Below are positions 3,095 to 19,069 of a stretch of 64,000 bases of DNA, one piece after another. Origin of the DNA: an uncultured Eubacteriales bacterium (GTDB taxonomy: Bacteria > Actinomycetota > Coriobacteriia > Anaerosomatales > PHET01). Under the pieces are notes generated by a model, which had not been told where the DNA came from, made no database searches, and saw only the letters and a list, made by a program, of their open reading frames with translations. Every line of letters begins with the position of its first letter. The stretch's first letter is position 1. The stretch lies in NCBI GenBank assembly GCA_964403885.1, contig CAYOHY010000007.1:5635-69634 (forward strand), read 5' to 3'. The translations under genes and the position numbers were made by a program.

Positions 3095-4206
3095 CCTTCC
3101 TCGGCGATCATCGCCCGAACTCGCTCGCACACCTGCTGGCACGCGTTGTGCCGCCCCATCTCTGAAACATTGCCCCTCATCTGAGCGAGCCGCTCGGGGT
3201 GACTGGAAAGGTAGCGGACCTTGTCGATCGCATCCTCGTCATCGCGCGCCACCAAAGCGACGCCCGCGTTGACGAGCTGGTCAGCGTTGAACCTCTCCTG
3301 CCCCGCAATCGGATTATAGATGACCAGAGGCACTCCCAGCGCTAATGCTTCCGCATGGGAGGCCGACCCCATACGGGCACAGACCACATCGGCCGCCTTG
3401 ATCGAGAGTGCTCGCGACGCCGTGTCTCCCACCAGTCTCAGGGGACCGGGCGAACCCACACCCTCGAGACGACGAGCCGCGCGCTCGTCGGCCGAGACGA
3501 CCACCACTTGGATCCCGGCCGCACTCAGACCCAACGCGATCGCCGCGGCGTCGACTTCTCCGGCCGCCGCCGACATCGTGACGGTGAAACGGTCACTGAG
3601 CCCCAGCTCAGCGCGGCACCCGGTCGCCGCATGGGCCTTGGTGGTGCGCTCCGAGACGGGAATGCCCGTGACCATGATGCGGTCCCACGCGACACCGCGC
3701 ACCACCAGCTCCTCACGGACCTCTTTGGTGGGTACGAAGAACAGCCTCACGTCAGGGTGCAGCCAGGTCAGCCGAGGACTCATGTCGGTCAGCACGTGGA
3801 AGACCGGCACCCCCGCCGGCGAGACCTCGGCGCACACCGCGGCCGCAAGCGACGAGGTCGCTATGACCGCGTGAGGACGGACCCTGCCGAGCAGCGCAAC
3901 CGCACGCTCGAGTCCGCTCGACTCGAGCTCCTGCATGACGTTGCCGAACACGCAGACCTGACGGGCTCGCTCCAACGTGCCCGTCAGCGCGGGCAGGAAG
4001 GCCTCGTCATGGCCGTAGGCGATGCGAGCGAGTACCGCGGTGGCGGGCAACACCTCTTCGAAGAAGTCGATCGTCTCGGCATCACAGTGGTCAGCCAAGA
4101 CCGACCGGTGATAGCGGTACAGCGCGTCGCTTACGGAGCGTGACAGTCCGCCAAGCGTGTCGCCCACGATCAGAATACGTCGCTTGTCGGAGCGACGTCG
4201 GGGCAT
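3091..4206 (-). CDS. GT28/MGDG-synthase-like glycosyltransferase (diacylglycerol or lipid-linked sugar transferase family)
   Basis: N-terminal ILIVGDTLGG, and a C-terminal half with GSASHAEALALGVPLVIYNPIAGQERFNADQLV, resembling MurG/MGDG-synthase C-domains. ATG 4206 shares one base with the upstream TGA (TGATG). Confidence 0.75.
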   Translation of the reverse strand: MPRRRSDKRRILIVGDTLGGLSRSVSDALYRYHRSVLADHCDAETIDFFEEVLPATAVLARIAYGHDEAFLPALTGTLERARQVCVFGNVMQELESSGLERAVALLGRVRPHAVIATSSLAAAVCAEVSPAGVPVFHVLTDMSPRLTWLHPDVRLFFVPTKEVREELVVRGVAWDRIMVTGIPVSERTTKAHAATGCRAELGLSDRFTVTMSAAAGEVDAAAIALGLSAAGIQVVVVSADERAARRLEGVGSPGPLRLVGDTASRALSIKAADVVCARMGSASHAEALALGVPLVIYNPIAGQERFNADQLVNAGVALVARDDEDAIDKVRYLSSHPERLAQMRGNVSEMGRHNACQQVCERVRAMIAEEG

Positions 4207-4988
4207 CAACCCACCGCCGCTCGGTGCTTGGTGAGCCGAACCAGCGTGCCGCCCAGCGGCGAGACATCGAACTCCACGTTGTCCATGAGCGCACGCATGA
4301 ACATGACGCCGCGTCCACCGGGGGCATAGAGGTCATCGTTGCCCGCGTGTACCCCGTCGAAGCCCTGACCGGCATCCATGACCTCGAGCACGACCCGGTC
4401 TTCGAACGCGATGACGCCGATACCCACGTGCCCCTCGCCCGTGCCAGGGGATCCATGGCGCACAGCGTTCGCAAGTGCCTCGCCCAGCGCGACCTTGATG
4501 TCGAAGAGCGCGGAGTCAGGAAAGCCGAGCGGTACGATCAGATCGCACACTCGTTCCCGGGTCTCACTCAGGCGGTTCACGTCGGGAGTCATCGTGAGGT
4601 CTTCGCGCCACAGCAACGAGGCGGGCGCAAAGGGCAGCTCGAGACCTTCGAGCGCAGCTGCGACGTTTGCGGACATGCCCACGGACTCAGCGACCGATAC
4701 CAGACCTGAAAGCTCCAGAATGCGCCCCACGTCCTTGGTCGCCCCAGCCAAGACGAGACGGCCGCCCACCGGTTTGAGCATGTGATCGAGCCACACGAGA
4801 AGCCCGAGCGCCGAGCTGTCGGCATAGTCGACACAGCTCAGATCGAGCACCACGTTCCGGGAGCCGGTCTTGAGTGCGGTATCAAGCCGCTCGCGGAGTT
4901 CAGGCACCACCGCGACGTCGATATCACCGGCAAGCCGCACCACGCAGGCACGGGGTCCGACCTCTTGAGAGATCTCGAATTGCGTCAT
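4206..4988 (-). CDS. Single-chain fusion of a STAS anti-sigma-antagonist domain and an RsbW/SpoIIAB-like HATPase serine kinase domain
   Basis: The N-terminal half has the STAS pattern (VVLDLSCVDYADSSALGLLV, with a DSS phospho-serine motif). The C-terminal half has an N-box EALANAVRHG, a G1 box DAGQGFD and a G2 box GGRGVMFMRAL. The start abuts the stop of the upstream PP2C gene. Confidence 0.8.
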   Translation of the reverse strand: MTQFEISQEVGPRACVVRLAGDIDVAVVPELRERLDTALKTGSRNVVLDLSCVDYADSSALGLLVWLDHMLKPVGGRLVLAGATKDVGRILELSGLVSVAESVGMSANVAAALEGLELPFAPASLLWREDLTMTPDVNRLSETRERVCDLIVPLGFPDSALFDIKVALGEALANAVRHGSPGTGEGHVGIGVIAFEDRVVLEVMDAGQGFDGVHAGNDDLYAPGGRGVMFMRALMDNVEFDVSPLGGTLVRLTKHRAAVG

Positions 4989-7900
4989 CTATGTGCCGAA
5001 CCCTTCATGCGGGCCGTCGTGTGTCTTGACGATGGTACCCGCAATCTCGACCACCAGAACCGCCACGTCGTCTTTGAGTCCCACCCTCACAAACGACTGG
5101 ACCGCACGAAGCAGGTCCGCGGGCGCATCGATAGCGCGAATCGACGCGCCGAACACCTGATCCACCCGTTCCTCGCCAAAGAACTCGCCCTCGAACCGAC
5201 CCTCCGTCACGCCGTCGGTATAGAGGAGCACCGCGTCACCTTCACCCAACCGCACGCTCTTCTCCGCATACGCTGCGTCGATCGCGGCGCCGAGCAGCGG
5301 CCCGGTGACCCCCAGGCGCTCGATGGTACCGTCAGCACGGCGCAGTACCGCAGGCGGATGTCCGCCATCGGCCCATGCCAGCTCTCCGGAGTGCGGATCG
5401 AGGCGGCCGAGCCACGACGTGACGATGTCGCTCGCATCTCCCGATTCACCCACGAAACGGTTGAGTTGGGACATAGCCTCAGCGGGCCCCAACCCGGCGG
5501 ACACCAATGCGCGCGCCGAGTACTTGATCATCGACGTCTTGGTCGCCGCCCTGACCCCCTTGCCGCACACATCGGCGATGGTGAACCATATCGCTCCGTC
5601 GGGCGCTCTGAACAGGTCGTAGTAGTCACCGCCGATCTCGGCGTCACCACCTGCAGGCCGATACTCCGCTGCCGCCCTGATCTCGGCGAACTCGGGAAGG
5701 GCCCCCGGAAGGATCGACCTCTGAAGAGTCTGGGCCACGTCGTGCTCTCGGCTGTAGAGACTCGCAGTGTCGATCGCGAGCGCGGCCTGCGTCGCGAAGG
5801 TCTGCAGCATGTTCAGGTCCTCATCGGCGAACGCACCCGGTCGCACCGAGAAGACCATGAGCACGCCGATGGGCCGCCCGCGCGCCATGAGCGGCACTGC
5901 GAGCAGCGAGCGCAAGTCGTGACTTGCCGCAGAGCCCGCGAGCCCGTCCATGCTCGCGTGCAGGTCCCTGACCGATACCGGTTGTCCGGTCTTGAACACG
6001 TGACCGGGCAGGTCCTCACCCGGCTTGACCTCGAGGTAGAGGACCGAGGGCGGCACCGCACCGCGCGCCATCGAGGTCGCAAGCGAGCCCTTGCGTGAAT
6101 CGTGCAGCAGCAACGCGACCGAGTCGGCCGAAAGGATCTTTTGGACGACGTCGAGCACTCGGTTGAGGACGACATTGACCTGCAACGAGGAGCCCACGGC
6201 CTGGCTGATGCGGAAGATCGTCTCAAGGTTCGCGGCGCGCGTCAGGGCACGTTCGTAGAAGAACGCGTTGTCGAGTGCGAGCTCGAGCTCGTCGGCCAAC
6301 GCCGAGGCGATCCGAAGCGACTTGCCGGTGTGGTCCGCCGCGGAGAGGGCGATCATCATCACCGCACCATGATCTGTGTCGAGGCCGACGGGAACCACGA
6401 GTAGCTCCGCAGCATCGAACTCGACCAGCAAACGGTCACCCTCCGGCCCGTCTCCCAGCATGTGAACGACCGGGTTTCCATCGCCTCGGGACAACACCCT
6501 GAGGCCCGCGGCAAGGAACTCGGGGTCGCGGCCGCGAGCCGGATCGTCAGGCAGGCCAAGCGCTGCTCGGTCCACCAGCAGGATGCTTGCGAACGGCGCC
6601 GACAGCACGTCGCGGATGATCCACTCGACGACACCCAGGGCCTTGCCGAGCCCGTCCGGCCGCACCAGCTCCTCCGCGACGGCGCGCAGCGCCTCGGCCA
6701 CCTGCCGAGACGCACTCTCCTCCTCGAACAGGCGTGAGGTCTGCACTGCGACCGCAGCCTGAGCCGAGAATGTGCGCACCATCTCCCGCTCGGCCTCACT
6801 GGCCTCTTGGCCGGCGTCTCGCAAGACGACGACCACGCCGAGCGCCTCATGACCGGCGAGCAACGGGGCCGCCAATGCCGAGGAATGGGAACCCGCAAGC
6901 CCGGGCAGCTCTGCCGAGAACTCAGCGGGTGAGCCGATGAGGTCCACCGGCGAGGACGAGTACAAGGCGCGGGCCAACCAGCCCCCGACGTCGACCTTCA
7001 CCGGCTCCGCGGCCGCGAGATCGATGCCTCGCGTTCGAACCGGCGTCAGCAGTGACCCGTCGCCTTCGACCAGGTAGATCGCCGCCCCGCCGGGTCCGAC
7101 GATGTGCCCCATCGCCGAGAGGATGCCGTCGAGCACCTGGTCGACCTGTGAGGCGCTCGCGAGCAGTTGCGAAAGATCGTGCAGGGCATTGAGGCGCAGC
7201 GCGAGATCGTTGAACGCCTCAGACACTGCGCCGATCTCATCAGCGCGACCCACGGGAAGCGGCTTGACGTAGGAACCGGCCGCCGCGCTGCGCGCAGCAC
7301 CCTCAAGGTCCCGCAGAGGCCGCACGAGACGCTGCGAGACGCCCCAGGCGGCAGCGATGGCGACCACGCCGCCGAAGATCAGCACCATGACGGCGGGCGT
7401 CACCGCGCGCATCGTGTCGCGCATCGCAACTTGCGCCGGCTCGACCACCATGATGCGCCAGTCGATACCGTCAAGGCCCTGGATGTCGTTGTACTGGCCG
7501 CCCAGCGGTGTGCCGTCGACGGAGGGTACGGTCACCCGTCCACTGCCCGCCGTCACCGGCGTCCAGCGTGCGCGTGAGAGCTGCGGTGAACTCGCCCCCG
7601 AATTCGCGATGATGCTGCCGCGATCGAGAACCGCCACCGTCCGGCCGCTCAGCTGCGCTGATACCTCCCTGACGATGCCGCCCAAGAAGCCGGTGTCGAC
7701 CTTTGCCACGAGAATCACCGGGCGGCCCGCCGACGATACGAGGGTTCGGACGAACCACAGGTCCGAGCGACTCTTCGACCCGGTCCCGGCGTGCGCGATG
7801 TATCCCGTGCGCCCATGAGCGATATCGCTGAAGACGGGCTCCGAGGCGATCGATGAGATCGGCGCCGCTCCCGGCATCGATGCGACCACCGAGCCGTCGG

Positions 7901-8231
7901 GCCGAACGAGGTAGGCAGCGTCAAGAGACCCGCGCTTGCGCGCGAGCATCATCGTGAACCGTGAGGTCATCTTCTGCGGTGAGCTCTCTTGCGCCATCTG
8001 GAAGGCAACATCAGCGAGGTAGCCTTCAAGGTCGCGAAGCTCGCTCTCAGTGCGGTCCTCGATGAACTGGACCGCAAGAACGTCACGTCCTTCGGCCTTC
8101 TCAACGGAAAGCCGGGAAGTGGAGACAAGCGCCACCGCTCCCGCAGTGGTCACGGTGATTGCTCCGATGAGGAGCGTCACGCGGACGATGCGGGCGGCGA
8201 GACCCCCTGGTGTGCGCAGTTTCGCAGCCAC
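4989..8231 (-). CDS. Transmembrane sensor phosphatase: extracytoplasmic domain flanked by 2 TM helices, HAMP, multiple GAF domains, C-terminal PP2C (SpoIIE/RsbU-type)
   Basis: TM helices near residues 13-36 and 275-300. HAMP-like region RPLRDLEGAARS...ADEIGAVSEAFNDLALRL. Repeated GAF-like segments. PP2C motifs GGDYYDLF and DVCGKG. GTG start with GGAGA upstream. Confidence 0.85.
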   Translation of the reverse strand: MAAKLRTPGGLAARIVRVTLLIGAITVTTAGAVALVSTSRLSVEKAEGRDVLAVQFIEDRTESELRDLEGYLADVAFQMAQESSPQKMTSRFTMMLARKRGSLDAAYLVRPDGSVVASMPGAAPISSIASEPVFSDIAHGRTGYIAHAGTGSKSRSDLWFVRTLVSSAGRPVILVAKVDTGFLGGIVREVSAQLSGRTVAVLDRGSIIANSGASSPQLSRARWTPVTAGSGRVTVPSVDGTPLGGQYNDIQGLDGIDWRIMVVEPAQVAMRDTMRAVTPAVMVLIFGGVVAIAAAWGVSQRLVRPLRDLEGAARSAAAGSYVKPLPVGRADEIGAVSEAFNDLALRLNALHDLSQLLASASQVDQVLDGILSAMGHIVGPGGAAIYLVEGDGSLLTPVRTRGIDLAAAEPVKVDVGGWLARALYSSSPVDLIGSPAEFSAELPGLAGSHSSALAAPLLAGHEALGVVVVLRDAGQEASEAEREMVRTFSAQAAVAVQTSRLFEEESASRQVAEALRAVAEELVRPDGLGKALGVVEWIIRDVLSAPFASILLVDRAALGLPDDPARGRDPEFLAAGLRVLSRGDGNPVVHMLGDGPEGDRLLVEFDAAELLVVPVGLDTDHGAVMMIALSAADHTGKSLRIASALADELELALDNAFFYERALTRAANLETIFRISQAVGSSLQVNVVLNRVLDVVQKILSADSVALLLHDSRKGSLATSMARGAVPPSVLYLEVKPGEDLPGHVFKTGQPVSVRDLHASMDGLAGSAASHDLRSLLAVPLMARGRPIGVLMVFSVRPGAFADEDLNMLQTFATQAALAIDTASLYSREHDVAQTLQRSILPGALPEFAEIRAAAEYRPAGGDAEIGGDYYDLFRAPDGAIWFTIADVCGKGVRAATKTSMIKYSARALVSAGLGPAEAMSQLNRFVGESGDASDIVTSWLGRLDPHSGELAWADGGHPPAVLRRADGTIERLGVTGPLLGAAIDAAYAEKSVRLGEGDAVLLYTDGVTEGRFEGEFFGEERVDQVFGASIRAIDAPADLLRAVQSFVRVGLKDDVAVLVVEIAGTIVKTHDGPHEGFGT

Positions 8232-8326
8232 CCGTCTCCACCCCGTCGAGGAGCCACGCGTCCCCCGCGTGACCTGCGACTACATCGTACTGCAAGCGCC
8301 TGACACGCGATAGCGAACTGGAAGCA

Positions 8327-9073
8327 TCATCCGGTCAGGCCGGGCAGCGGGACCTCGATCGCGGGCACGAAGTTGAACAGCCACGACGCCAAGACACCCA
8401 ACCGGCCGGTGACGATCAGCACTCCCACCACTATCAGCAGCGAACCGGCGACTCGGTTGATGATCAGCGAGTGCTTGTTGAGCCACCTCATCACCACTCC
8501 CAGGCGCCCGAACAACACCGCCACCAGCACAAAGGGCACCCCGAGACCCAACGAGTAGACGAGAAGAAGCAACGCGCCCTGACCCACCGACTCCGAGGAG
8601 CTTGCGAGGGCCAGGATCGAGGCGAGGATCGGCCCCACGCATGGTGTCCAGCCGGCGGCGAACGCCATTCCCATGACAAGCGCCGCTCCCCTGCCGAAGT
8701 TGCGCGAACGCTCCATGTCCACCCGGGCCTCGCCGTAGAGCCACGGCACTTTGATGATGCCGAGCATCAGCACCCCGAAGCCGATGACCGCTAGCCCTCC
8801 CACCTTCTCGATGATCACGCGGTACTCGGACAGGAACTGACCCAGCACCGAGGCGGTCGCGCCAAGCGACACGAAGATGAACGTGAAGCCGGCGACGAAC
8901 ATGAGTGACGGAACGAGTACCTTGCTCGTGGAGGTCTGCGCGTCTCGCAGCTCAGCGGCGGTCAGGCCTGTCATGAACGAGAGGTATCCCGGAATGAGCG
9001 GGAGGACGCACGGCGACAGAAACGAGACAACACCCGCAGCGAACGCGATCAGAACCGATAGTGCCAGCGGCAT
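8327..9073 (-). CDS. ccdA: CcdA/DsbD-family thiol:disulfide electron-transfer membrane protein
   Basis: Two signature cysteine motifs, LSPCVLPLIPGY and WTPCVGPIL, in a 6-TM protein. Start set at ATG 9073 (MPLALSV...), with GAGGAG 11 nt upstream, rather than the track's GTG at 9085. Confidence 0.85.
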   Translation of the reverse strand: MPLALSVLIAFAAGVVSFLSPCVLPLIPGYLSFMTGLTAAELRDAQTSTSKVLVPSLMFVAGFTFIFVSLGATASVLGQFLSEYRVIIEKVGGLAVIGFGVLMLGIIKVPWLYGEARVDMERSRNFGRGAALVMGMAFAAGWTPCVGPILASILALASSSESVGQGALLLLVYSLGLGVPFVLVAVLFGRLGVVMRWLNKHSLIINRVAGSLLIVVGVLIVTGRLGVLASWLFNFVPAIEVPLPGLTG

Positions 9074-9119
9074 CGAGGCACACACTCCTCAGCGAACAAA
9101 GCGACGGTGGACGCAGAAC

Positions 9120-9148
9120 AGCATACCCTCTGGGGTATCGGTATGCAA
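9120..9148 (-). promoter_or_regulatory. Sigma-70-type promoter with embedded CsoR-type palindromic operator (ccdA)
   Basis: The minus strand reads TTGCAT-accg-ATACCCCAGAGGGTAT-GCT: -35 TTGCAT, a 17-nt spacer and -10 TATGCT. The palindrome ATACCC-N4-GGGTAT fills the spacer. The same 29-bp layout occurs at 16709..16737 and 17750..17778. Confidence 0.55.
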
Positions 9149-9149
9149 C

Positions 9150-9656
9150 TTACTCCGCGACTATGACACCGCACGCTTGGCCTGACACTGAGCTGAGCGG
9201 GTACACGCCTGGCCGAAGTCCGGGCAACCTGATCACGGTGCCGCCCTCCGTCAACCGGAACGACAGTCCCAAGGCCTCGAGTTTGACGTACTCGGTGCAC
9301 CCCTCGCCCTCGGAGAACACGACTTCGACGGGCTCGCCCGCACGTACCGTGATGTGATTGGGCGTGAGGTATCCGCGCGATGCGTCTATGTCGACACGCT
9401 GCTCGCCGCTGACCTGCAGCGCTCGCACGGGCTGAGACAACACCTTCTGCTGAGCGTACACCGTGGTCGCGGGGTCATACAGCGTGCCCGCATAGGCCGC
9501 GGATCGCATCCCCTGACGCGCCGAATCGACAAGCTGGTGCGATGCGGCGAACGAGTAACCGGCCACCACGACGAGCGCGGAAAGTGCCGCAACGGCGAGA
9601 TACGCGGTGGTACCTGGCCTGGCTACGTCGTGGATGGCCGGTCGATTCGCGAACAT
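9150..9656 (-). CDS. Membrane-anchored cupredoxin-like domain protein (Cupredoxin_1-like, two Cys)
   Basis: One N-terminal TM (TAYLAVAALSALVVVAGYSF). The C-terminal ITVRAGEPVEVVFSEGEGCTEYV...GVYPLSSVSGQACGVIVAE resembles the small cupredoxin-like domains found in metal-resistance loci. Start moved to ATG 9656, just after the copZ stop. Confidence 0.6.
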   Translation of the reverse strand: MFANRPAIHDVARPGTTAYLAVAALSALVVVAGYSFAASHQLVDSARQGMRSAAYAGTLYDPATTVYAQQKVLSQPVRALQVSGEQRVDIDASRGYLTPNHITVRAGEPVEVVFSEGEGCTEYVKLEALGLSFRLTEGGTVIRLPGLRPGVYPLSSVSGQACGVIVAE

Positions 9657-9663
9657 CAGTGCG

Positions 9664-9885
9664 TCAGGCCTCCAGGTCTGCCTCGTAACCGGCACCCTGG
9701 ATCGCGGAGATGATCGCCTCAGGCGTGACGACAGCGTCATCGTAGGTGACCACGGTCAAGCCGGTGGCGTGGTCCGTCTTGGTCGACTCGACGCCGGCCA
9801 GGTCGGTGAGCGTCATATCGACGAGCATCGAGCACGAGCTGCAGTGCAGTCCGGATGTGACGAAACGAGAGGTCTTCTGAGCCAT
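9664..9885 (-). CDS. copZ: Heavy-metal-associated (HMA) domain metallochaperone, CopZ-like
   Basis: MAQKTSRFVTSGLHCSSCSMLV... carries the GxxCxxC metal-binding loop in a 73-aa ferredoxin-like-size protein. AAGGAGG lies 7 nt upstream of ATG 9885. The track ORF (to 10161) is an upstream in-frame extension. Confidence 0.85.
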   Translation of the reverse strand: MAQKTSRFVTSGLHCSSCSMLVDMTLTDLAGVESTKTDHATGLTVVTYDDAVVTPEAIISAIQGAGYEADLEA

Positions 9886-9935
9886 GGGGTAGTCCTCCTT
9901 GGTGTATCCGAGCATCCTCGGCACGACCGACACGG

Positions 9936-9951
9936 TGCGAGCAGTGTGCCA
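9936..9951 (-). promoter_or_regulatory. Candidate sigma-54 (-24/-12) promoter upstream of copZ
   Basis: The minus strand reads TGGCACACTGCTCGCA. GG-N10-GC spacing is exact, the -24 element is perfect, and the -12 element is TCGCA (one mismatch to TTGCA). It ends 50 nt before the copZ ATG. Confidence 0.55.
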
Positions 9952-10000
9952 ACAACGCCGCCCGGGAGGCAACCTGAACGCGGGTGAATCGAGCGCTGGG

Positions 10001-10330
10001 CTAGGCCTGCTGCTGATCGTCGAGACGCGCTCCGCAGTGAGGGCACAAACGCCAGTCCTGACCGACGTCCTGGCCGCACTCCGTGCACGAACGTGTCTGA
10101 AGATCGGGGCCGACGCTGCGATCACGCGACCGCCCGGAGCCCAACAGCAGCACGGCGACACCGATCACCAGCCCGGCAGCCACCGGAGGAATCCACCCAA
10201 GGCTGGCGGCGATGGTCGAGTGCAGCTCCGCCTCAGGACCCACAAGGCGGGCAACCACGACGAAGAGCATGCCGAACGCTCCGCCGACAAGGGCGGCGAA
10301 CGTAAAACGGATGAGCGAGCGAGCGGTCAA
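10001..10330 (-). CDS. Small membrane protein with C-terminal zinc-ribbon (CxxC...CxxC)
   Basis: Two hydrophobic helices followed by CTECGQDVGQDWRLCPHCGARL. TTG start with GGAGA 6 nt upstream. Confidence 0.6.
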   Translation of the reverse strand: MTARSLIRFTFAALVGGAFGMLFVVVARLVGPEAELHSTIAASLGWIPPVAAGLVIGVAVLLLGSGRSRDRSVGPDLQTRSCTECGQDVGQDWRLCPHCGARLDDQQQA

Positions 10331-10369
10331 CGGTGTCTCCGAGCGTGCAGGGGTGCCACGCCACAGAAG

Positions 10370-10385
10370 TGCAACACGTGTGCCA
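10370..10385 (-). promoter_or_regulatory. Sigma-54 (-24/-12) promoter, consensus match
   Basis: The minus strand reads TGGCACACGTGTTGCA, an exact TGGCAC-N5-TTGCA. It starts 5 nt after the EBP stop and ends 39 nt before the TTG start of the Zn-ribbon gene. Confidence 0.7.
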
Positions 10386-10390
10386 GCGGG

Positions 10391-11737
<1,347 letters not shown>

Positions 11738-11754
11738 TGTCCAGTCCTTCCGTG

Positions 11755-13284
11755 TCAGTCCATGGAGGCGGGCAGGGTGACCGTGAACGTGGTCCCCTCC
11801 CGAGAGCTTTCCACTTCGATGTGCCCGTCATGCTCATCGATGATCCTGTGCACGATCGTGAGACCAAGCCCCGTACCCTCGGCGCGCTTGGTGAAGAAGG
11901 GGTCGAACACTTTGCTGAGGTCGTTGGGATCGATGCCGGGCCCGTCGTCGACCACCGAGACGACCACGTAGTCCTGGTCCCCGGCGGCGTGTATCGAGAT
12001 CGCTCCGCCGGTCTCATCCATCGCTTGGACCGCGTTGGTGACCAGGTTCAAGAACACCTGCTTGAGCTGATCGGGGTCTCCGGCCACCCGGGGTAGGTCT
12101 TCGGGAGCCTCCAGCGTGATGTAGACATCGGCCTGCCGAGCGAACCGGTTGGTGAACAGCACCACGTCCTCCAACACGCTCGCAAGGTCGGTGTCCACGA
12201 GCGTTGGCTTGCTCGGGCGACCGAAGTCCAGCAGCGCCTTGATGACCTTGTCGAGCCGGTCGATCTCTTGCTTGATGACCTCTGCCGCATCATGGATGCG
12301 CACCGGATCGCAGTTCGCGTCCTCGAGCAACTGCACGCTCGCGCGGATGACGCCGAGCGGGTTTCGGACCTCGTGAGCGACACCGGCCGTGAGCTCACCC
12401 ATCGCCGCCAGCCTGTCGGCCCGGATGAGTTGATCGGTGAGCGCCTTGATGTCGGATACGTCCTCGAGGGTCACGACGGCGCCAAGAACGCTTCCACCCA
12501 CCGCCCTCATCCGGGACGTGGACGCTTGCACGTGAAGCTCCGTGCCGTTGGGAGTGACCAGCGTGGCTTCGCGCAGCGCGAGAGGCATCCGGCCGGAGAG
12601 CACCTTGGCCACGTCGGCCGACAGGCCGGCGTCGTCGCGGAAGATGGCACCGATGGGCTTGGGCACCATCTCGAACTCGGACATGCCCAGCATTCGCTCG
12701 GCTGATGGGTTCGCGGTCGCAACCGAGCCGTCAGGGCCCACCGTGAGCACTCCCGAGGTGATGGAGCGCAGGATCGATGAGGTGTAGTCCTGCACGTTGA
12801 TGAGCTGGATCGCGCGCTCTTCCAGCTTGCGGTAGGCCTCCTCGAGCTGAAGCGACACCTGACGCAGATCCTGCGTCTTGGCCTCCTCGATGTCGCGGAC
12901 CGCACCAAAGAGCAGACCGATCAAGAAGTACGAAGCGACTTCGATCGCGTTGTCGAACCCCAACCCCAGCTGCGAGTTGAGCGACAGCTCCGCATGGATC
13001 ATGAACGGCACCGACGCTGCGGTCGCGGCGATGACCCCTCCCCGCTTGCCGAACACCCACGCGGCATAGATGACCGGGATGAAGTACAGGCGCCGGTAGA
13101 GGAGGTGAAGCGGGATACTGCCCGGAACCACGTTGGTGAACAGATGCAGCATGGTGATGAACACGAGCATGACAGCGATGACAGCGATGGCTCGCACGTC
13201 TCGCGAGCGTGCGGCATCGCCCACGTCCTCACCGTTGGAGCGCGGTGCAGGGCGCCGAGGCAACCCTATCCGTTCAGGCGTCAT
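11755..13284 (-). CDS. Membrane sensor histidine kinase (multi-TM N-domain, PAS, HisKA, HATPase)
   Basis: H-box AAMGELTAGVAHEVRNPL, N-box NLVTNAVQAM, G boxes DDGPGI and GTGLGL. Four or five N-terminal hydrophobic helices without a large external loop. Start set at ATG 13284, forming an ATGA overlap with the rpoN stop. Confidence 0.85.
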   Translation of the reverse strand: MTPERIGLPRRPAPRSNGEDVGDAARSRDVRAIAVIAVMLVFITMLHLFTNVVPGSIPLHLLYRRLYFIPVIYAAWVFGKRGGVIAATAASVPFMIHAELSLNSQLGLGFDNAIEVASYFLIGLLFGAVRDIEEAKTQDLRQVSLQLEEAYRKLEERAIQLINVQDYTSSILRSITSGVLTVGPDGSVATANPSAERMLGMSEFEMVPKPIGAIFRDDAGLSADVAKVLSGRMPLALREATLVTPNGTELHVQASTSRMRAVGGSVLGAVVTLEDVSDIKALTDQLIRADRLAAMGELTAGVAHEVRNPLGVIRASVQLLEDANCDPVRIHDAAEVIKQEIDRLDKVIKALLDFGRPSKPTLVDTDLASVLEDVVLFTNRFARQADVYITLEAPEDLPRVAGDPDQLKQVFLNLVTNAVQAMDETGGAISIHAAGDQDYVVVSVVDDGPGIDPNDLSKVFDPFFTKRAEGTGLGLTIVHRIIDEHDGHIEVESSREGTTFTVTLPASMD

Positions 13285-14675
13285 CGACGGCGCCTCGCCC
13301 ACGAGGGTTCGATGCCGAGCTCCTCACGGTACTTGGCGACGGTGCGGCGGGCGACGGTCACGCCCTCGTCCGACAGGATCTCGGCGAGCTTCTGATCGGA
13401 GAGTGGTTTGGCGATGTCCTCGGCTTTGACCAAGTCACGCAGCCGCTGCTTGATCGTGGTGGCGGCGACGTCCATCCCCTGCGCGGTGCGGTAGCCGCCG
13501 CTGAAGAAGTGCTTGAGCTCGAACAGTCCGTACGGCGTGGCCATGTACTTGCCGGTCACGCCTCGCGACACCGTCGACAGGTGCACACCGATCTCCACCG
13601 CCACGTCCTCGAGCCGCAGGGGCCTGAGCGGGCCCTTGCCGTCCTCGAAGAAGTCACGCTGGACGTCGATGATGATCTCGGTGATCCGGCTGACGGTGTC
13701 CTTGCGGCGATCGACATTCTTGATGAAACTCTCCGCCGATCGGATCTTGTCCTTGAGATAGCGCTTGGTCTCGTCGTCGGCGGTCGATCCGGTCTTGAGC
13801 ATGGCGCGGTAGCGCGGAGACACCCTCAACGTGGGCAGCGCCTCGTTGTTGGGGATGATGAGCCAGTCGTCGTCGAAACGCCGTAGCGTCACGTCCGGCA
13901 CGATGTAGCCTGGCGACGGACCGGGCGAGAACGCACCGGCAGGACGCGGGTTGAGAGCCTTGAGTATCTCGACGAGCCGGCGGACCTCTGCCTCATCGAC
14001 ACGGAGGGCACGAGCGACCTTGCGGAAGTGGTTCGATGCGATGTCGTCGAGATGCTCTTTCACGATACGCATGAGAAGCGGCTCGTCGATGCCCAGGAAC
14101 TCCATCTGGAGGCACATCGCCTCGGCAAGGTCACGGGCAGCGACACCGGGCGGATCGAGCTGCTGGACCGCCTTCAAGCCGGCCTCGGCAGCCTGCTCAT
14201 CGACACCCACGAGCGCTGCGACCTCGGCGAGTGAGCCCCTGAAGAATCCGTCGTGGTCGAGCGAGCCGATCACGGCTTGGGCTGCGTGCTGTGTGTCCTC
14301 ATCGATGTCAAGCAGCGCGAGCTGGTCGAGTAGATAGTCGTCAAAGCTCTGAACGCCGCCGACGAACTCCTCGGTGTTGGCCTGCTCGGCGTTTGGATCG
14401 CGAGGAGACGTGGTCTCTATCTGGTCGAGATCCTCGTACATCTCGATCCACTCGTCCCAGGATCGTTCATCCTCGGCGGAGTCCTCGGTGGGCTCTTCGC
14501 CCTCGACGGGCTCGCTGTCGGTCTCGTCGACCTCGAGGACCGGGTTCTCGAGCATCTCGACTTCGATGAGCTGCTGAAGCTCGGCGACGGGCATCGCGAG
14601 GATGTTCAGCCCCTGGTAGACCTGGGGCGAGAGTGTCACCTTCTGGCGCAGCTCGGGGCGCTGCTGGAGATCCAT
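13281..14675 (-). CDS. rpoN: RNA polymerase sigma-54 factor
   Basis: N-terminal MDLQQRPELRQKVTLSPQ (region I), an acidic region II, and a C-terminal RpoN box ARRTVAKYRE. Start at ATG 14675 with GGGAGGGGG upstream. The track ORF start (14894) is an Arg-rich extension. Confidence 0.9.
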   Translation of the reverse strand: MDLQQRPELRQKVTLSPQVYQGLNILAMPVAELQQLIEVEMLENPVLEVDETDSEPVEGEEPTEDSAEDERSWDEWIEMYEDLDQIETTSPRDPNAEQANTEEFVGGVQSFDDYLLDQLALLDIDEDTQHAAQAVIGSLDHDGFFRGSLAEVAALVGVDEQAAEAGLKAVQQLDPPGVAARDLAEAMCLQMEFLGIDEPLLMRIVKEHLDDIASNHFRKVARALRVDEAEVRRLVEILKALNPRPAGAFSPGPSPGYIVPDVTLRRFDDDWLIIPNNEALPTLRVSPRYRAMLKTGSTADDETKRYLKDKIRSAESFIKNVDRRKDTVSRITEIIIDVQRDFFEDGKGPLRPLRLEDVAVEIGVHLSTVSRGVTGKYMATPYGLFELKHFFSGGYRTAQGMDVAATTIKQRLRDLVKAEDIAKPLSDQKLAEILSDEGVTVARRTVAKYREELGIEPSWARRRR

Positions 14676-14725
14676 TGCCGCCCCCTCCCGTGGTACTCGC
14701 GGGCCGCATCGGGAGCGCGACCCTC

Positions 14726-14741
14726 TGCAAGAATCATACCA
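14726..14741 (-). promoter_or_regulatory. Promoter candidate upstream of rpoN (ambiguous: sigma-54-like TGGTAT-N5-TTGCA or extended -10 TGgTATGAT)
   Basis: The minus strand reads TGGTATGATTCTTGCA. GG-N10-GC spacing is correct, but the same bases also read as an extended -10 element (TGnTATGAT). About 50 nt upstream of the rpoN ATG. Confidence 0.35.
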
Positions 14742-14763
14742 CTTTCTGGGAGGTCTCTGACGC

Positions 14764-15732
14764 CTACTCCTGTGGAGGAATCGTGGGGAGCGGGTCCTTC
14801 TCGGGCAGCTGTATGACCGCGATCGCCGCGATGACCATCGCCCCGCCCACCAGCTGAGACACCGTGAGCGCCTCACCAAAGAGCAGGAAGGCACCCAGAC
14901 CCGCGATCACGGGCTCGACCGTCGAGGTGACCGTGGCGTTGGTGGGCGGAATGAGCCGCAACGCGACGAGGAAGGCGCCGAACGGGATGATGGTGCTCAC
15001 AACGGCCATGAACAGCACCGCTGCCGCGGTCCCGGGGTCCGCGAATGCGCTGAGCACCTTCATCGGACCCAGCACGAGAAGCCAGAACGCCGCCGCGAAC
15101 CCCAGACCGAAGACCAGCGTCGTGAATGGCCTGAACCGGCGGGCCGCCACACTGCCCATGAGGGAGTACGTCGCGAAGAACGCCGCCGAGGTCAGACCCC
15201 ACGCGATACCGGCCGGCGAGACGGCGAGCCCCTCCCCGCTCAGGGCACCGACGACGAGCGCACAGCCGCTGACCGACAGCGCCACACCCGCGGGAAGCGT
15301 CCAGGTGAGCTTGTGGCGCAAGAACAGCACGCTCACGATCAGCACGATGACCGGCGCCATGTACTCCAGCAGAATCGCGGTCGCCACGCTCGTGAGCGAG
15401 ATCGTCTTGAAGTAGGTGTAGTGCACGCCGGCAAGCCCGACCACGCCGAATACTGCGAGAAACGGTATGTCCTTGCGTTCGACACGCAAGGCGTCGCGCT
15501 GGGCGAAGAGCAGGTATGCGATGAGCAGCACGAACGCGGACAGGGCACGACCCGCGGACAGGACCGTGGGCTCGATGGTGATCCCGAGCGGAGGAAACGG
15601 CCACTGTGCGGTCTCGGGCGAGGGCTGACTGAACAGCCACTTCGCCATCAGCCCGCCACTCGCCCAGCACGTCGCAGCCAGCAGCGCGAGCCCGTATCCT
15701 TTGAGCCGGTCGGCCTTAGCTTGTGCGTGCAT
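14764..15732 (-). CDS. EamA/DMT-family transporter (10-TM)
   Basis: Two repeated 5-TM halves, each with an EamA-like pattern (ATCWASGGL..., VATAILLEYMAPV...). Overlaps the CDF gene by 17 nt. Confidence 0.8.
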   Translation of the reverse strand: MHAQAKADRLKGYGLALLAATCWASGGLMAKWLFSQPSPETAQWPFPPLGITIEPTVLSAGRALSAFVLLIAYLLFAQRDALRVERKDIPFLAVFGVVGLAGVHYTYFKTISLTSVATAILLEYMAPVIVLIVSVLFLRHKLTWTLPAGVALSVSGCALVVGALSGEGLAVSPAGIAWGLTSAAFFATYSLMGSVAARRFRPFTTLVFGLGFAAAFWLLVLGPMKVLSAFADPGTAAAVLFMAVVSTIIPFGAFLVALRLIPPTNATVTSTVEPVIAGLGAFLLFGEALTVSQLVGGAMVIAAIAVIQLPEKDPLPTIPPQE

Positions 15733-16681
15733 CGAGCTCCGCTTGGGTCTTGCTCGCTTGGTACTCGTCGTAGGGTTCGAGATGTGCGATCACGTCGACG
15801 ACCTGCGGGAACTCCGTGGCGATGGTGCGCTCCACGTCCTCGGCGATGCGGTGTCCGTCAGCCACGGTACGGGTCTCGTCCACCTGCACGTGCAGATCGA
15901 CGTAGACCTCGGCCTCGGAACCGCGCGTGCGCACGTGGTGACAGCCCAAGACTCCCGCGACCGACATCGTCACGGCACAGATGTCGGCGACAGGGATGCG
16001 GGCAGAGTCGGACAGCGTTGCACTGGCCTGCTTGAACACGCCCCACGCCGTGTACACGATCGCGATCGCGACAAGGCCTGCCACGATGGGGTCGGCTTTG
16101 AGCAGAAGGTCGTTCCCGGTCACCTCGCCGATCTTGACCAGCGCGAGCGAGAGCAAGACGCCCAGGCTGACGAGGATGTCTGAAGCCGTGTGGCTCGCAT
16201 CGGCGACGAGGATCTCCGAGCCCAACCGCTTGCCCACGCGACGCTCGTACGTGGTGATGAACACGTTGATACACAGCGTGATGATCATGATGGCGAACGA
16301 CGCAGCGGTGACGTTGGGCGCCACCGCCTCGCCTGTCAGCTGTTGAACCGCGCTCGAGCCGATGCGATACGCGGCAAACAGGAGCATGGCGCCGATCGCG
16401 GCCGATGCGTACGTCTCGTACTTGCTGTGCCCGTAGGGGTGGTCATGGTCGGCGGGGCGCGCCGCGAGTCCCATGCCCACCAGCCCCACGACGTTGCTCG
16501 TGCCGTCGAACAGCGAGTGGAACCCGTCCGCCTGCATCGCTGCGGAGTGGATGTAGGTGCCGTAGGCCAGCTTCGACAGGGCGACGCCAAGGTTCAGGAA
16601 CAAGATGATCCACAGCACCCTGCGGATCTCCCTGATGCGGCTCGCACCCACCTCCGCGCCGTTGGTCTTGGTATAGCCCAC
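15716..16681 (-). CDS. Cation diffusion facilitator (CDF) family metal efflux protein
   Basis: Six-TM N-domain with the HSAAMQADGFHSLFD and ILVADASHTASD metal-site motifs (HxxxD / HxxxD) and a C-terminal cytoplasmic domain. GTG start with a G-rich RBS. Confidence 0.85.
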   Translation of the reverse strand: MGYTKTNGAEVGASRIREIRRVLWIILFLNLGVALSKLAYGTYIHSAAMQADGFHSLFDGTSNVVGLVGMGLAARPADHDHPYGHSKYETYASAAIGAMLLFAAYRIGSSAVQQLTGEAVAPNVTAASFAIMIITLCINVFITTYERRVGKRLGSEILVADASHTASDILVSLGVLLSLALVKIGEVTGNDLLLKADPIVAGLVAIAIVYTAWGVFKQASATLSDSARIPVADICAVTMSVAGVLGCHHVRTRGSEAEVYVDLHVQVDETRTVADGHRIAEDVERTIATEFPQVVDVIAHLEPYDEYQASKTQAELDARTS

Positions 16682-16708
16682 AGCCCGTCGCCCCTCTCTC
16701 GGACACGC

Positions 16709-16737
16709 TTGCGCTAGATACCCCTAGGGGGCATAGT
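16709..16737 (+). promoter_or_regulatory. Sigma-70-type promoter with embedded CsoR-type operator (csoR-like gene; shared divergent region with CDF)
   Basis: The plus strand reads TTGCGC-tag-ATACCCCTAGGGGGCAT-AGT: -35 TTGCGC, a 17-nt spacer and -10 CATAGT. The palindrome lies in the spacer. The -10 ends 42 nt before ATG 16780. Confidence 0.55.
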
Positions 16738-16779
16738 GAACGTATCGGTACGACCTACGGTAGCAAACCGGAGCCTAAG

Positions 16780-17373
16780 ATGCCCGAGATTCCCACGCCC
16801 ATAACCGTCCCCAACGCGGACGAGCGACGCAAGATCGTCAACAGGCTTCGACGCCTCGAGGGGCAGGTCCGCGGCCTGCACGCGATGATCGAGTCGGGCA
16901 AGGAGTGCGAGGCCGTCCTCACGCAGGTCATGGCCGTGAAGTCCGCGCTCAACCAGGTGGGCATGCACGTCATCGGCCACGCCATGAAGACGTGCCTTGT
17001 GGACGAGTCGCTCACTGCGCGTGATGATCTCATCACCGCCGCGTTCGATGTCTACCTGCACTACCGGGAGCTGAGCGCGGCGACCGAGGCAGCCGCAACC
17101 CCCCGAGACACCTCACCCGAGTTCATCAAGGCGAAGCTCAAGACCCTCGAGGCACAGGTGCAGTCGGTTCAAAACGTCATCGAGACCGAAGGCGACTGCG
17201 AGAGCGCGCTGCGTGGTGTCACGGAGTCCACGGCCACGCTCAACGATGTCGCGCGGGCGGTCTTGGGACACGCGATGCAAAAATGCCTGATCGATGACGC
17301 CGCACAGTCTCGAAACGACGTCATCGACCAGGCAATACAGGTCTTCTTGCGCTACTCCTCGTGCGTCAAGTAG
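16780..17373 (+). CDS. csoR: Tandem-duplicated CsoR/RcnR-family metal-sensing repressor (two DUF156 domains in one chain)
   Basis: Domain 1: IVNRLRRLEGQVRGLHAMIESGKECEAVLTQVMAVKSALNQVGMHVIGHAMKTCL. Domain 2: KLKTLEAQVQSVQNVIETEGDCESALRGVTESTATLNDVARAVLGHAMQKCL. Both keep the Cys...His...Cys positions. 197 aa, against the usual 90-110 aa. Confidence 0.85.
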   Translation: MPEIPTPITVPNADERRKIVNRLRRLEGQVRGLHAMIESGKECEAVLTQVMAVKSALNQVGMHVIGHAMKTCLVDESLTARDDLITAAFDVYLHYRELSAATEAAATPRDTSPEFIKAKLKTLEAQVQSVQNVIETEGDCESALRGVTESTATLNDVARAVLGHAMQKCLIDDAAQSRNDVIDQAIQVFLRYSSCVK

Positions 17374-17383
17374 TGGACCGCGT

Positions 17384-17707
17384 CTAACCGCCCAGGCCCA
17401 GCTCCCGATACAACGCGTCCGCGTTACGGGCGCCCACCACGGTGGCGGTCACCTTGCCGCCCTCGAACTTCGCGATCGTGGGGATGCTCATGACGCCGTA
17501 TTCGATGGCGACCTCTCGGGCCTCGTCGATGTTGAGCTTCACGAACTTGGCTCCGTCGCCCACCCGCGCGGCCAACTTGTCCACTTCAGGGGCCACCATG
17601 CGGCACGGGCCACACCACGGGGCCCAGAAATCAACGACAACGGGCTTGTCGGACAGCAGAACCTCGTCATCGAACGACTTGGCGGTTATCTCCATCGCTG
17701 CACTCAT
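17384..17707 (-). CDS. trxA: Thioredoxin
   Basis: WCGPC active site in DFWAPWCGPCRMVAP. A 107-aa protein from ATG 17707, with AAGGAGA upstream. The track start (17797) is an upstream extension. Confidence 0.9.
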   Translation of the reverse strand: MSAAMEITAKSFDDEVLLSDKPVVVDFWAPWCGPCRMVAPEVDKLAARVGDGAKFVKLNIDEAREVAIEYGVMSIPTIAKFEGGKVTATVVGARNADALYRELGLGG

Positions 17708-17749
17708 CCGGCTTCTCCTTCTTCCCATCACCTGTCTGGAACAGTCGTA

Positions 17750-17778
17750 ATTATACCCCTTGGGGTATCGCCTCGCAA
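17750..17778 (-). promoter_or_regulatory. Near-consensus sigma-70 promoter with perfect CsoR-type palindrome (trxA; divergent to the chelatase-like gene)
   Basis: The minus strand reads TTGCGA-ggcg-ATACCCCAAGGGGTAT-AAT: -35 TTGCGA, a 17-nt spacer and -10 TATAAT. The perfect 16-bp palindrome ATACCCCTTGGGGTAT is at 17753..17768. Confidence 0.65.
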
Positions 17779-17833
17779 GTCGGCCGAGTTGGGTCATGTG
17801 TCAACGAGTATCATCTTCCCCAGGGAGGAGACC

Positions 17834-19069
17834 GTGGATCCGACACGACTCACATGGCTGGCTTTGATCGCGGGCGCGCTGGCGGCCGGCGCGGCCGTCG
17901 TGGGCATCCTCGTCGTGCGTCGGCGCCTCGAAGTTGTGGTGGCGATCATCGGATCCGTCGGCGCGGTGAGCGCATTCACCGCGTCAGCGAGATTGACCGC
18001 TCACTACGAGCGCCCTGAAGCAGCCGTCTGGTCGCTCGTCTTCGTGTTTGCCGCGGGTGCCGGAGGCTATGCGCTCGCCTCAACGCTTCTGTATCGGCTC
18101 GCTCGCGAGGCGGGTCATCCCACGATGAGCCGCGAGGGAGCCCCCGCACGCGATCGTGCGGCGGTCGTCCTGACCGCCTGCGCCGAGCCGGCTCACTACG
18201 ACCCCGGCGCCACCGCTCAGATGCTGCAGTCGCTGGCCGACGAGGGGCTGCTCGAACCCTCTGTCGGTGCGTTGCCGCTCTTGTTCTTCGGTCAGAAGGC
18301 CCGCTACCGGGCCGCAGGTGACGTGAGTCCCGCTATGGCCGGCCTTCGGGCGGTGGCCGAGCACCTCGAGGAGACTCTCGCGGACACGGCTGATGTGTCG
18401 ACAGCGACGTGCTCGGGCGACGGCTCCCTCGCCGACGTGGTGGCCCTGGCGGCACAGGCCGGGTACCGCCGAATCGTGATCTGCGTGCTCGCCGTGGGAG
18501 AGTCCATGCACATGGACATGGCGCGCGGCGCAGTGGAACAGCTTCGCCTGGGCGAGTCCGGGGTGACGGTCGTCTCCACGGGCGCCCTGTGGTCATCCGA
18601 ACGGATCATCTCGGCCCTCACCCAACGCATCATGCACGGCGTGGATGACCCGGCCGCCACAGGGGTCGTGCTGGTCGGCCACGGGCAACCGGAGGAGCGA
18701 GCGAGAAGACACCGCTCCTTCGACGAGCAGGAGATGGCGTTTCTGAGCAGGCTTCGGATGGCCCTGGCCGATCGAGGACTGTCCGAGGACTGGGTGCGCA
18801 TCGCATGGGACGACTGGACCGAGCCCGACGTCACCTCGGCGGTCAGGCACCTTGCGGCGCTGGGCGCGAAGCGCGTTCTCGTGGTACCGGCGACGTTTCC
18901 TCTCGACACGCTCGGGACTCGGCTCGACCTTGAGATCGCAGTCCGTCAGGCCCGAGTGAACGAGGGCGTCGCAGTCATCACGATGGCGGCATGGCGCGAC
19001 AGTGACGCGGTGATCGAGGAGTTGCGCAGCCGAGTAATAGCCGCGCTGGAAACACCAGCGGGCGCCTAG
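17834..19069 (+). CDS. Membrane-anchored class-II-chelatase-like protein (ferrochelatase/CbiX-like fold, divergent)
   Basis: Start set at GTG 17834, with GGGAGGAG 6 nt upstream. About 3 N-terminal TM helices. A soluble part follows, with VVLVGHGQP, RVLVVPATFPLDTLGTRLDLEI and overall two-lobe colinearity with ferrochelatase/CbiX as I recall them. Assignment is tentative. Confidence 0.5.
   Translation: MDPTRLTWLALIAGALAAGAAVVGILVVRRRLEVVVAIIGSVGAVSAFTASARLTAHYERPEAAVWSLVFVFAAGAGGYALASTLLYRLAREAGHPTMSREGAPARDRAAVVLTACAEPAHYDPGATAQMLQSLADEGLLEPSVGALPLLFFGQKARYRAAGDVSPAMAGLRAVAEHLEETLADTADVSTATCSGDGSLADVVALAAQAGYRRIVICVLAVGESMHMDMARGAVEQLRLGESGVTVVSTGALWSSERIISALTQRIMHGVDDPAATGVVLVGHGQPEERARRHRSFDEQEMAFLSRLRMALADRGLSEDWVRIAWDDWTEPDVTSAVRHLAALGAKRVLVVPATFPLDTLGTRLDLEIAVRQARVNEGVAVITMAAWRDSDAVIEELRSRVIAALETPAGA

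Follow-up and report, generated by a model that had tools for sequence, protein, structure and literature searches.

Among the closest described counterparts of the locus reported here are two two-component systems. In ZraS/ZraR-zraP, the sigma-54-dependent metal and envelope-stress system of enterobacteria, kinase and NtrC-class activator act on a sigma-54 promoter beside their own genes, and the output is a small protein, related to stress or metal, that may feed back on the sensor. AtoS/AtoC has the same domain order as the pair described below and provides its best-scoring NCBIfam models (350.4 and 500.6 bits). Actinobacteria have been said to lack the sigma-54 system (PMC3162934), and a 2025 survey stated that Actinomycetota 'effectively lack a functional RpoN' and suggested that sigma-54 promoters cannot work where G+C content is high (PMC12316311). 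The DNA analysed here, a 64-kb stretch of contig CAYOHY010000007.1 from an uncultured bacterium (hereafter the window), has a G+C content of 66.7% and represents core chromosome, with uvrA, uvrC, iPGM and tRNA-Leu. It contains co-oriented genes for sigma-54 (rpoN), a sensor histidine kinase and an NtrC-class activator, followed by a sigma-54-type promoter, P1, and by genes for a Zn-ribbon protein and a CopZ-like protein. Comparison of orthologous loci makes it likely that these parts form a compact sigma-54 cassette, conserved across a clade of uncultured Coriobacteriia, in which P1 drives the Zn-ribbon and CopZ-like genes.

The likeness to ZraSR-ZraP had been drawn in the original prediction, made from the window's sequence, which allowed for a different sensor and cargo. 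The locus indeed appears to work alike, but its proteins score below the model cut-offs of that family (210.9 bits versus 479 for ZraS and 403.5 versus 760 for ZraR) and are not members of it. In addition, the kinase has four membrane helices and a cytoplasmic PAS domain but no periplasmic domain, the cargo consists of a Zn-ribbon and an HMA protein rather than periplasmic ZraP, and rpoN lies inside the cassette. The two proteins also fall below the equivalog cut-offs for AtoS and AtoC (646 and 714); no ato genes are present, and the N-terminal sensor differs.

P1 lies on the minus strand at 10370..10385 and reads TGGCACACGTGTTGCA, an exact match to the sigma-54 consensus with the GG and GC dinucleotides exactly 10 nt apart. 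It starts 5 nt past the TAG stop of the activator gene (10393..10391), and 39 nt separate its 3′ end from the TTG start of the Zn-ribbon gene (10330), which is preceded by GGAG. An exact consensus site at this place, with the same two gaps, had been predicted and was confirmed in coordinates and strand. A search of both strands of the window showed that P1 is the sole exact match to TGGCAC-N5-TTGCW; shuffled sequence gave 0.06 expected matches, and 6 of 100 shuffles contained any match at all. Transcription from P1 is predicted to start near 10359, 12 nt downstream of the C of the -12 GC.

When genomes and metagenomes were scanned for the activator, one close relative was recovered, L001 (a metagenome-assembled genome labelled Coriobacteriaceae), and the other matches listed, generic NtrC-type proteins, were 51% identical at most. 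A protein search showed more than 120 activator clusters at 81-88% identity, the named ones being labelled Coriobacteriia or Coriobacteriales, and the remaining orthologous loci were gathered by this search followed by contig look-ups, giving a set of 13 distinct orthologous loci with the window included. The result showed that P1 is present in all 13 loci as TGGCA(C/T)-N5-TTGCA, on the sense strand and 5-40 nt past the activator stop. In the motif-anchored alignment TGGCA and TTGCA are invariant throughout, the sixth base is C in 12 loci, and the base 5′ of TGG is a pyrimidine in 12, matching the known consensus. The elements are thus kept while the bases around them drift: 11 different spacer sequences occur among the 13 loci, and the spacer and flank columns agree no more than background. 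For rpoN, kinase and activator, pairwise comparison of the window with the other loci gives 0.8-1.5 synonymous substitutions per site (dS), which is near saturation, and over the final 225 nt ahead of P1 third codon positions are essentially randomised. Bases free of constraint would thus have diverged, but both the -24 and the -12 element have been retained. Taken together with the adjoining intact sigma-54 and activator genes, this conservation provides strong comparative evidence for a functional sigma-54 promoter at P1.

A conserved 16-mer could also be the operator of another protein, or the rpoN system a decaying relic, with the consensus match being coincidental. Published surveys that regard the phylum as lacking sigma-54 would fit such a coincidence (PMC12316311; PMC3162934). 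However, the invariant positions are exactly those of the -24 and -12 elements, with the spacer left free, and P1 adjoins the only rpoN and activator genes seen. Against a relic, 12 of the 13 loci have all three of rpoN, kinase and activator intact, and these genes are under purifying selection, with ratios of nonsynonymous to synonymous substitution (dN/dS) of 0.07-0.21. We consider both forms of this explanation highly improbable.

The rpoN gene (13281..14672, minus strand) encodes a protein of 463 aa in which Pfam identifies region I (AID), the core-binding domain (CBD) and the DNA-binding domain (DBD). The RpoN box (ARRTVAKYR) can be read in the translation, and the TIGR02395 score is 411.3 bits against a cut-off of 277.35. 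Its dN/dS relative to orthologues is 0.09-0.16. RpoN proteins of the clade fall into one cluster at 50% identity; its representative, under the name 'Actinomycetota bacterium', shares 68% identity with the window RpoN. Beyond this cluster, identity is 43% or less and the relatives belong to mixed phyla, so there is no sign of recent transfer, and a search for a recent donor of rpoN found none.

The sensor histidine kinase gene (11755..13284, minus strand) encodes PAS, HisKA and HATPase domains behind four N-terminal transmembrane helices. Its likely start is an ATG overlapping the rpoN stop (ATGA); the longest open reading frame (ORF) starts at a GTG at 13302. Residues 1-170 (12790..13284, minus strand) comprise the four helices with minimal external loops. 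No Pfam family matched this N-terminal domain above threshold, the weak matches being MASE1 (E = 1.4e-4) and DUF4118. Alignment of the orthologues showed the invariant motifs LYRxLYxxPxxYAxxVFGxRGG and GxLFGxxRDxE in the membrane domain and no conserved Cys/His/Met cluster. The kinase, whose dN/dS is 0.14-0.21, looks like an intramembrane or cytoplasmic sensor. The same membrane domain was found, at 39% identity, in one unrelated metagenome locus (L132).

The activator gene (10391..11737, minus strand) encodes an NtrC-class enhancer-binding response regulator with a REC domain, an AAA+ Sigma54_activat domain containing GAFTGA, and a Fis-type helix-turn-helix (HTH_8). It is the only GAFTGA protein within the window, and its dN/dS is 0.07-0.14. 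The locus encodes a complete sigma-54 and a GAFTGA activator, and the predicted arrangement of rpoN, histidine kinase and enhancer-binding protein directly upstream of P1 on the same strand was borne out by Pfam and NCBIfam. In L172 (3938..6988), rpoN and the kinase gene are fragmented into several ORFs, while the activator gene is intact, as is P1 (a TGGCAT variant); possible explanations are decay of the system and assembly frameshifts.

Gene order is the same in all 13 loci: trx, a CsoR-family repressor, a CDF exporter, EamA, rpoN, kinase, activator, Zn-ribbon, CopZ, an accessory gene where present, CcdA, a HAMP-GAF-PP2C phosphatase and a STAS-kinase fusion. By contrast, among the matches listed, the next-best activator homologues (159 loci at 51% identity or less, in other phyla) include none with CopZ, Zn-ribbon or CcdA nearby and two with rpoN nearby. 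On this comparison the cassette is specific to a clade of uncultured Coriobacteriia. The original prediction of a self-contained sigma-54 circuit, in which rpoN, kinase and enhancer-binding protein adjoin the promoter of a Zn-ribbon/CopZ operon, is supported both by the presence of P1 in every locus and by this constant order. The prediction had also remarked that no sigma-54-controlled CopZ/cupredoxin module was known from a genome of high-G+C Gram-positive type, in agreement with the two surveys cited above and with our literature search, in which nothing linking sigma-54 to Coriobacteriia or to control of CopZ was found; the description of the cultivated OPB41 Coriobacteriia makes no mention of sigma factors. 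No actinobacterial WhiB signature was found in the window, a result that is uninformative either way.

By analogy with NtrC-class systems, the kinase would sense a membrane or cytoplasmic signal and phosphorylate the receiver domain of the activator. The phosphorylated activator would then oligomerise, and its GAFTGA loops, with ATP hydrolysis, would open the closed complex of RNA polymerase and sigma-54 at P1, with transcription beginning at the start proposed above. A scan of 8900..15000 predicted no credible terminator in the interval from the activator gene to the Zn-ribbon gene, and no canonical -35/-10 promoters were found in it. As no terminator precedes P1, some read-through from an upstream promoter probably sets a basal level, and P1 would supply the induced level.

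The lack of a terminator between the activator and Zn-ribbon genes and the position of P1 just behind the activator stop in every locus could also be read as those of a roadblock or insulator, at which a stable sigma-54 closed complex mainly stops read-through into the Zn-ribbon and copZ genes until it is activated. Sigma-54 closed complexes are long-lived, which would favour such a role. However, this is pure conjecture; it, too, presupposes a genuine sigma-54 site at P1 and does not conflict with ordinary activation, and as the main function of P1 we consider it improbable.

Several observations weigh against a cassette driven from P1 as proposed. No conserved upstream activating site was found near P1 in 11 loci, which were searched from -400 to +140 for 8-mers and inverted repeats in common (arms of 5 nt separated by 0-14 nt) and, over the final 225 nt of the activator gene, for third-codon conservation. 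Coding sequence fills the 400 nt upstream of P1, with no shared inverted repeat and no conserved synonymous run; the recurring sequences are all coding motifs, such as YQWPG and ENTIER. The short distance from the activator stop to P1 means that read-through could blur the role of the promoter, and the assignment of the relatives to the phylum rests on the labels given by the assembly submitters. Finally, a second sigma-54-type site ahead of copZ, P2, has TCGCA as its -12 element and is absent from the three closest relatives, L162, L175 and L176 (87-88% activator identity).

The region around P1 was also examined for RNA structure. No Rfam family was found at E ≤ 0.1 in 8000..18500. A structured 5′ leader following P1 was considered and rejected, its fold being weaker than that of shuffled sequences (z = +1.5). 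Every locus has some short hairpin downstream of P1, but not a shared one.

P2 lies on the minus strand at 9936..9951 and reads TGGCACACTGCTCGCA, with the single mismatch in the -12 element and GG-N10-GC kept. Its 3′ end is 50 nt from the ATG of copZ (9885), which is preceded by AAGGAGG, and its transcription start is predicted near 9925. Like P1, it is on the sense strand and a short distance upstream of a gene start. When one mismatch to TGGCAC-N5-TTGCW was allowed, the window contained 3 matches versus 1.26 expected, which is not significant window-wide, and by count alone P2 is therefore unremarkable. The third of these matches, and the only other near-consensus match in the window, is TGGCACCGTCGTTGGT at 60645..60660 (minus strand), which has GG where the essential GC should be.

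The spacers between the Zn-ribbon gene and the next gene could be compared in 10 loci (68-124 nt each, 956 nt in total). A sense-strand site with at most one mismatch occurs in two of them, the window and L171 (TGGCACGTACTTCGCA, one mismatch), and L161 has a degenerate site, TGGCATGCGAATCGCG, in which GG-N10-GC is kept, making three if it is counted. The other seven spacers (L162, L175, L176, L163, L169, L172 and L173) have none, and L001, L166 and L168 have no such spacer at all. In shuffled spacers the mean was 0.014 loci and none of 20,000 shuffles reached two, so that P2 is not a chance match. The comparison suggests that P2 is a real but lineage-specific addition, and in the window lineage, and independently in L171 and L161, a weaker P2 would add transcription of copZ and the accessory gene. 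Beside this stands the reading that P1 is the only promoter, P2 being non-functional or very weak and copZ simply the second gene of the P1 transcript. The imperfect -12 element, the lack of window-wide enrichment of one-mismatch sites and the loci with no site or no spacer all agree with this reading. However, apart from the placement statistics, it sits poorly with the fact that the window and L171 share the TCGCA variant but differ in spacer sequence, and that L161 keeps GG-N10-GC at the homologous place, and we regard it as rather unlikely. The original prediction of two tandem promoters therefore holds in part: the coordinates, the one mismatch, GG-N10-GC and the 50-nt distance were all confirmed, but the second site is no general feature of the cassette. 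The same applies to the expectation that both 16-mers outscore shuffled sequence, which P1 did outright, and P2 by its placement but not by its window-wide count.

A different element occupies the same spacer in L162 (8756..8856), L175 (8753..8851) and L176 (8756..8856), which share a -10-like GGGTAyCATGATG. Different lineages may have evolved different internal copZ promoters.

The genes behind P1 begin with that of the Zn-ribbon protein (10001..10330, minus strand; Pfam Zn_ribbon_3 and Zn_Ribbon_1), which has two transmembrane helices and a C-terminal Cys4 ribbon. In each of the 11 loci with called ORFs it directly follows P1, and an unnamed ORF of 92-113 aa occupies its position in L175 and L176. 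The motif C-x2-CG-x7-WRLCPxCG is conserved and the N-terminal membrane part is variable. It is followed by the gene for the CopZ-like protein (9664..9885, minus strand; 73 aa), which is present in 12 of the 13 loci. This protein has the ferredoxin-like HMA domain of metallochaperones (48.7 bits versus a cut-off of 24.8) and an MxCxxC-type motif, GLHCSSC. It remains below the NCBIfam cut-offs for CopZ (44 bits versus 95) and MerP, and as the CopZ models were not reached no metal was assigned to it. No copA partner was found in the locus.

In some lineages a gene for a membrane-anchored beta-sandwich protein follows (9150..9656, minus strand in the window; 168 aa). This accessory gene is found in five loci, namely the window, L161, L162, L176 and, as a doubtful homologue, L171. 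The protein had been taken for a cupredoxin, but as a copper protein it was rejected, since its Cupredoxin_1 score of 25.3 bits is under the cut-off of 27, it lacks conserved copper ligands, the two Cys of the window protein not being conserved, and it evolves fast (30-33% identity between loci). Of the predicted Zn-ribbon/CopZ/cupredoxin operon, the first two members were thus upheld by Pfam and the third was reduced to an accessory gene. The conserved output of the cassette, as judged from gene content, is the Zn-ribbon protein and the CopZ-like protein.

Intramembrane and cytoplasmic sensor kinases often depend on a small membrane partner. One might speculate that the Zn-ribbon protein is such a partner of the kinase or a feedback element, an idea weakened by L166, whose version lacks the membrane part. 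The L166 protein (8423..8659; also L167) has 78 aa and no membrane segment, where the other aligned orthologues have two; the membrane anchor may therefore be dispensable, or the L166 gene may be degenerating.

Upstream of rpoN lies another conserved element, P0 (14726..14741, minus strand), reading TGGTATGATTCTTGCA. About 55 nt ahead of rpoN, TGGTAT-N5-TTGC(A/T) is found in all 13 loci, with CGGTAT in L166. P0 shows GG-N10-GC and at the same time an extended -10 element (G-TG-G-TATGAT), fitting G-TG-n-TAnnnT with a T-rich discriminator and CA at the expected start. As every conserved base also fits the extended -10, this was taken as the primary reading and a plain sigma-54 promoter was rejected as such. 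The rpoN gene would most simply be transcribed from P0 as an extended -10 promoter by the housekeeping sigma factor.

It is possible in addition, and without replacing the explanation given for P1, that P0 is bound by sigma-54 so that the cassette autoregulates, either positively, with the activator driving rpoN, kinase and activator, or negatively, with a sigma-54 closed complex covering the overlapping extended -10. The GG-N10-GC and TTGC of P0 are kept in all loci, L166 included, although the extended -10 has lost its TG there; the last position of P0 is A or T as in the sigma-54 consensus, and rpoN is reported to be preceded by sigma-54 promoters in several bacterial classes (PMC12316311). 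However, the 16-mer is fully explained as an extended -10, with G before TG in 12 of 13 loci and TAnnnT invariant, besides the discriminator and the CA at the start. Moreover, the base before TGG is G and not a pyrimidine as at P1, and the -24 element, TGGTAT, is two steps from consensus. Autoregulation through P0 is therefore held only tentatively, and the extended -10 is retained as the reading of this element.

At its 3′ end the sigma-54 operon is bounded by the ccdA promoter (9120..9148, minus strand; TTGCAT-N17-TATGCT). A perfect palindrome of CsoR/CstR type, ATACCCCAGAGGGTAT (9138..9123), extends across the spacer and -10 of this promoter, and the same operator stands ahead of ccdA in every locus containing ccdA. 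Because this operator-controlled promoter is conserved, the sigma-54 operon is considered to end before ccdA. Two further CsoR/CstR-type operators are found at trx (17753..17768, inside TTGCGA-N17-TATAAT) and in the divergent region between the repressor and the CDF-EamA genes (16718..16734). All three palindromes, ATACCCC-N2/3-GGGGTAT, are conserved in the window, L001 and L161-L176; those of trx and ccdA each lie between a -35 (TTGnnn) and a -10 (TAnnnT) with a spacing of 17 nt. A similar sequence, ATACCCTTATGGGGTAT, has been published as the core of the cst operator (PMC8643695). No operator of this type was found at copZ, between 9886 and 10390.

The CsoR-family repressor gene (16780..17373, plus strand) has orthologues in all loci; the protein is duplicated in tandem in the window, L162, L163, L175 and L176, whereas the other loci have one domain. 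Its X and Z cysteines are 29 residues apart (Cys-X29-Cys), the Y position, occupied by the copper-ligand His in copper sensors, is Ala or Ser, a His stands one residue earlier, and a C-terminal YSSC is conserved. Under the W-X-Y-Z rule, x-C-x-C marks candidate persulfide sensors and x-C-H-C marks Cu(I) sensors (PMC8643695), and the x-C-x-C fingerprint found here suggests sensing of persulfide or thiols and not of Cu(I). The ccdA, trx and CDF operons may form the regulon of this repressor, with reactive sulfur or thiol stress rather than copper as effector. As to the signal that induces the cassette, the neighbouring trx, CcdA, CDF exporter and CsoR/CstR-family repressor genes point to thiophilic-metal or reactive-sulfur/thiol stress. 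The metal context assumed in the original prediction is less certain than it had seemed, since the neighbouring repressor has a fingerprint typical of persulfide and not of Cu(I) sensors.

The locus resembles the CsoR-copZA systems that control copper chaperones in Gram-positive bacteria in that a CopZ-like chaperone is encoded close to a CsoR-family repressor and ATACCC-N-GGGTAT-type operators are present (PMC8643695). It differs from them in that copZ has neither an operator nor a copA partner, the operators stand at trx, CDF and ccdA, and the repressor is x-C-x-C like persulfide-sensing CstR; with no operator at copZ and Ala or Ser at the Y position, a CsoR-regulated copZ operon was not found. 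FisR, a sigma-54-dependent persulfide-responsive activator (PMC7315123), sets a precedent for sigma-54 control of a sulfide/thiol-stress response beside a second, repressor-based system. However, FisR senses through its own N-terminal domain and drives sulfide-oxidation genes, whereas the activator of the cassette is of the phospho-receiver type, with a separate kinase and other cargo. We found no description of a two-layer arrangement such as this one, in which a CopZ-like chaperone would be under activator-dependent control and its neighbours trx, ccdA and the CDF exporter under repressor control.

The mechanism proposed is canonical; the phylum, the cargo and the compact all-in-one layout are new. 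A 67% G+C actinobacterial lineage here keeps an intact rpoN under purifying selection together with a textbook promoter across 13 loci, which contradicts the generalisation that Actinomycetota lack sigma-54. As sigma factor, sensor, activator and target lie within 5 kb, the cassette is a natural minimal system that should be easy to reconstitute and is suited to studying sigma-54 specificity in a G+C-rich genome.

Borrelia and Chlamydia each have sigma-54 and one activator (PMC3162934). As in Borrelia (Hk2-Rrp2-RpoN) and Chlamydia, sigma-54 in this clade may serve one kinase-activator pair and very few promoters; there, however, rpoN, activator and target promoters do not form one contiguous cassette. 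An extension of this likeness, plausible enough to state but doubtful, is that sigma-54 is 'private' in the clade, with one kinase, one activator and the promoters of the cassette, perhaps including P0, as its whole range, and that it has long been kept within the thiol/metal stress regulon of the CstR-like repressor. If true, Actinomycetota would have their first working sigma-54 regulon, and one among the smallest known.

Downstream of ccdA a partner-switching pair is always syntenic, consisting of a HAMP-GAF-GAF-PP2C phosphatase (1080 aa) and a STAS/anti-sigma-kinase fusion (260 aa), at 4206..8231 (minus strand) in the window. Between ccdA and the PP2C gene, L163 (10029..10044; also L164 and L165) has a two-mismatch site, TGGCACAACGGAGGCA, which occurs in this lineage only and is probably due to chance. 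A second phosphatase gene, of PAS-GAF-PP2C type, lies 15 kb away in the window, at 23128..25293 (minus strand).

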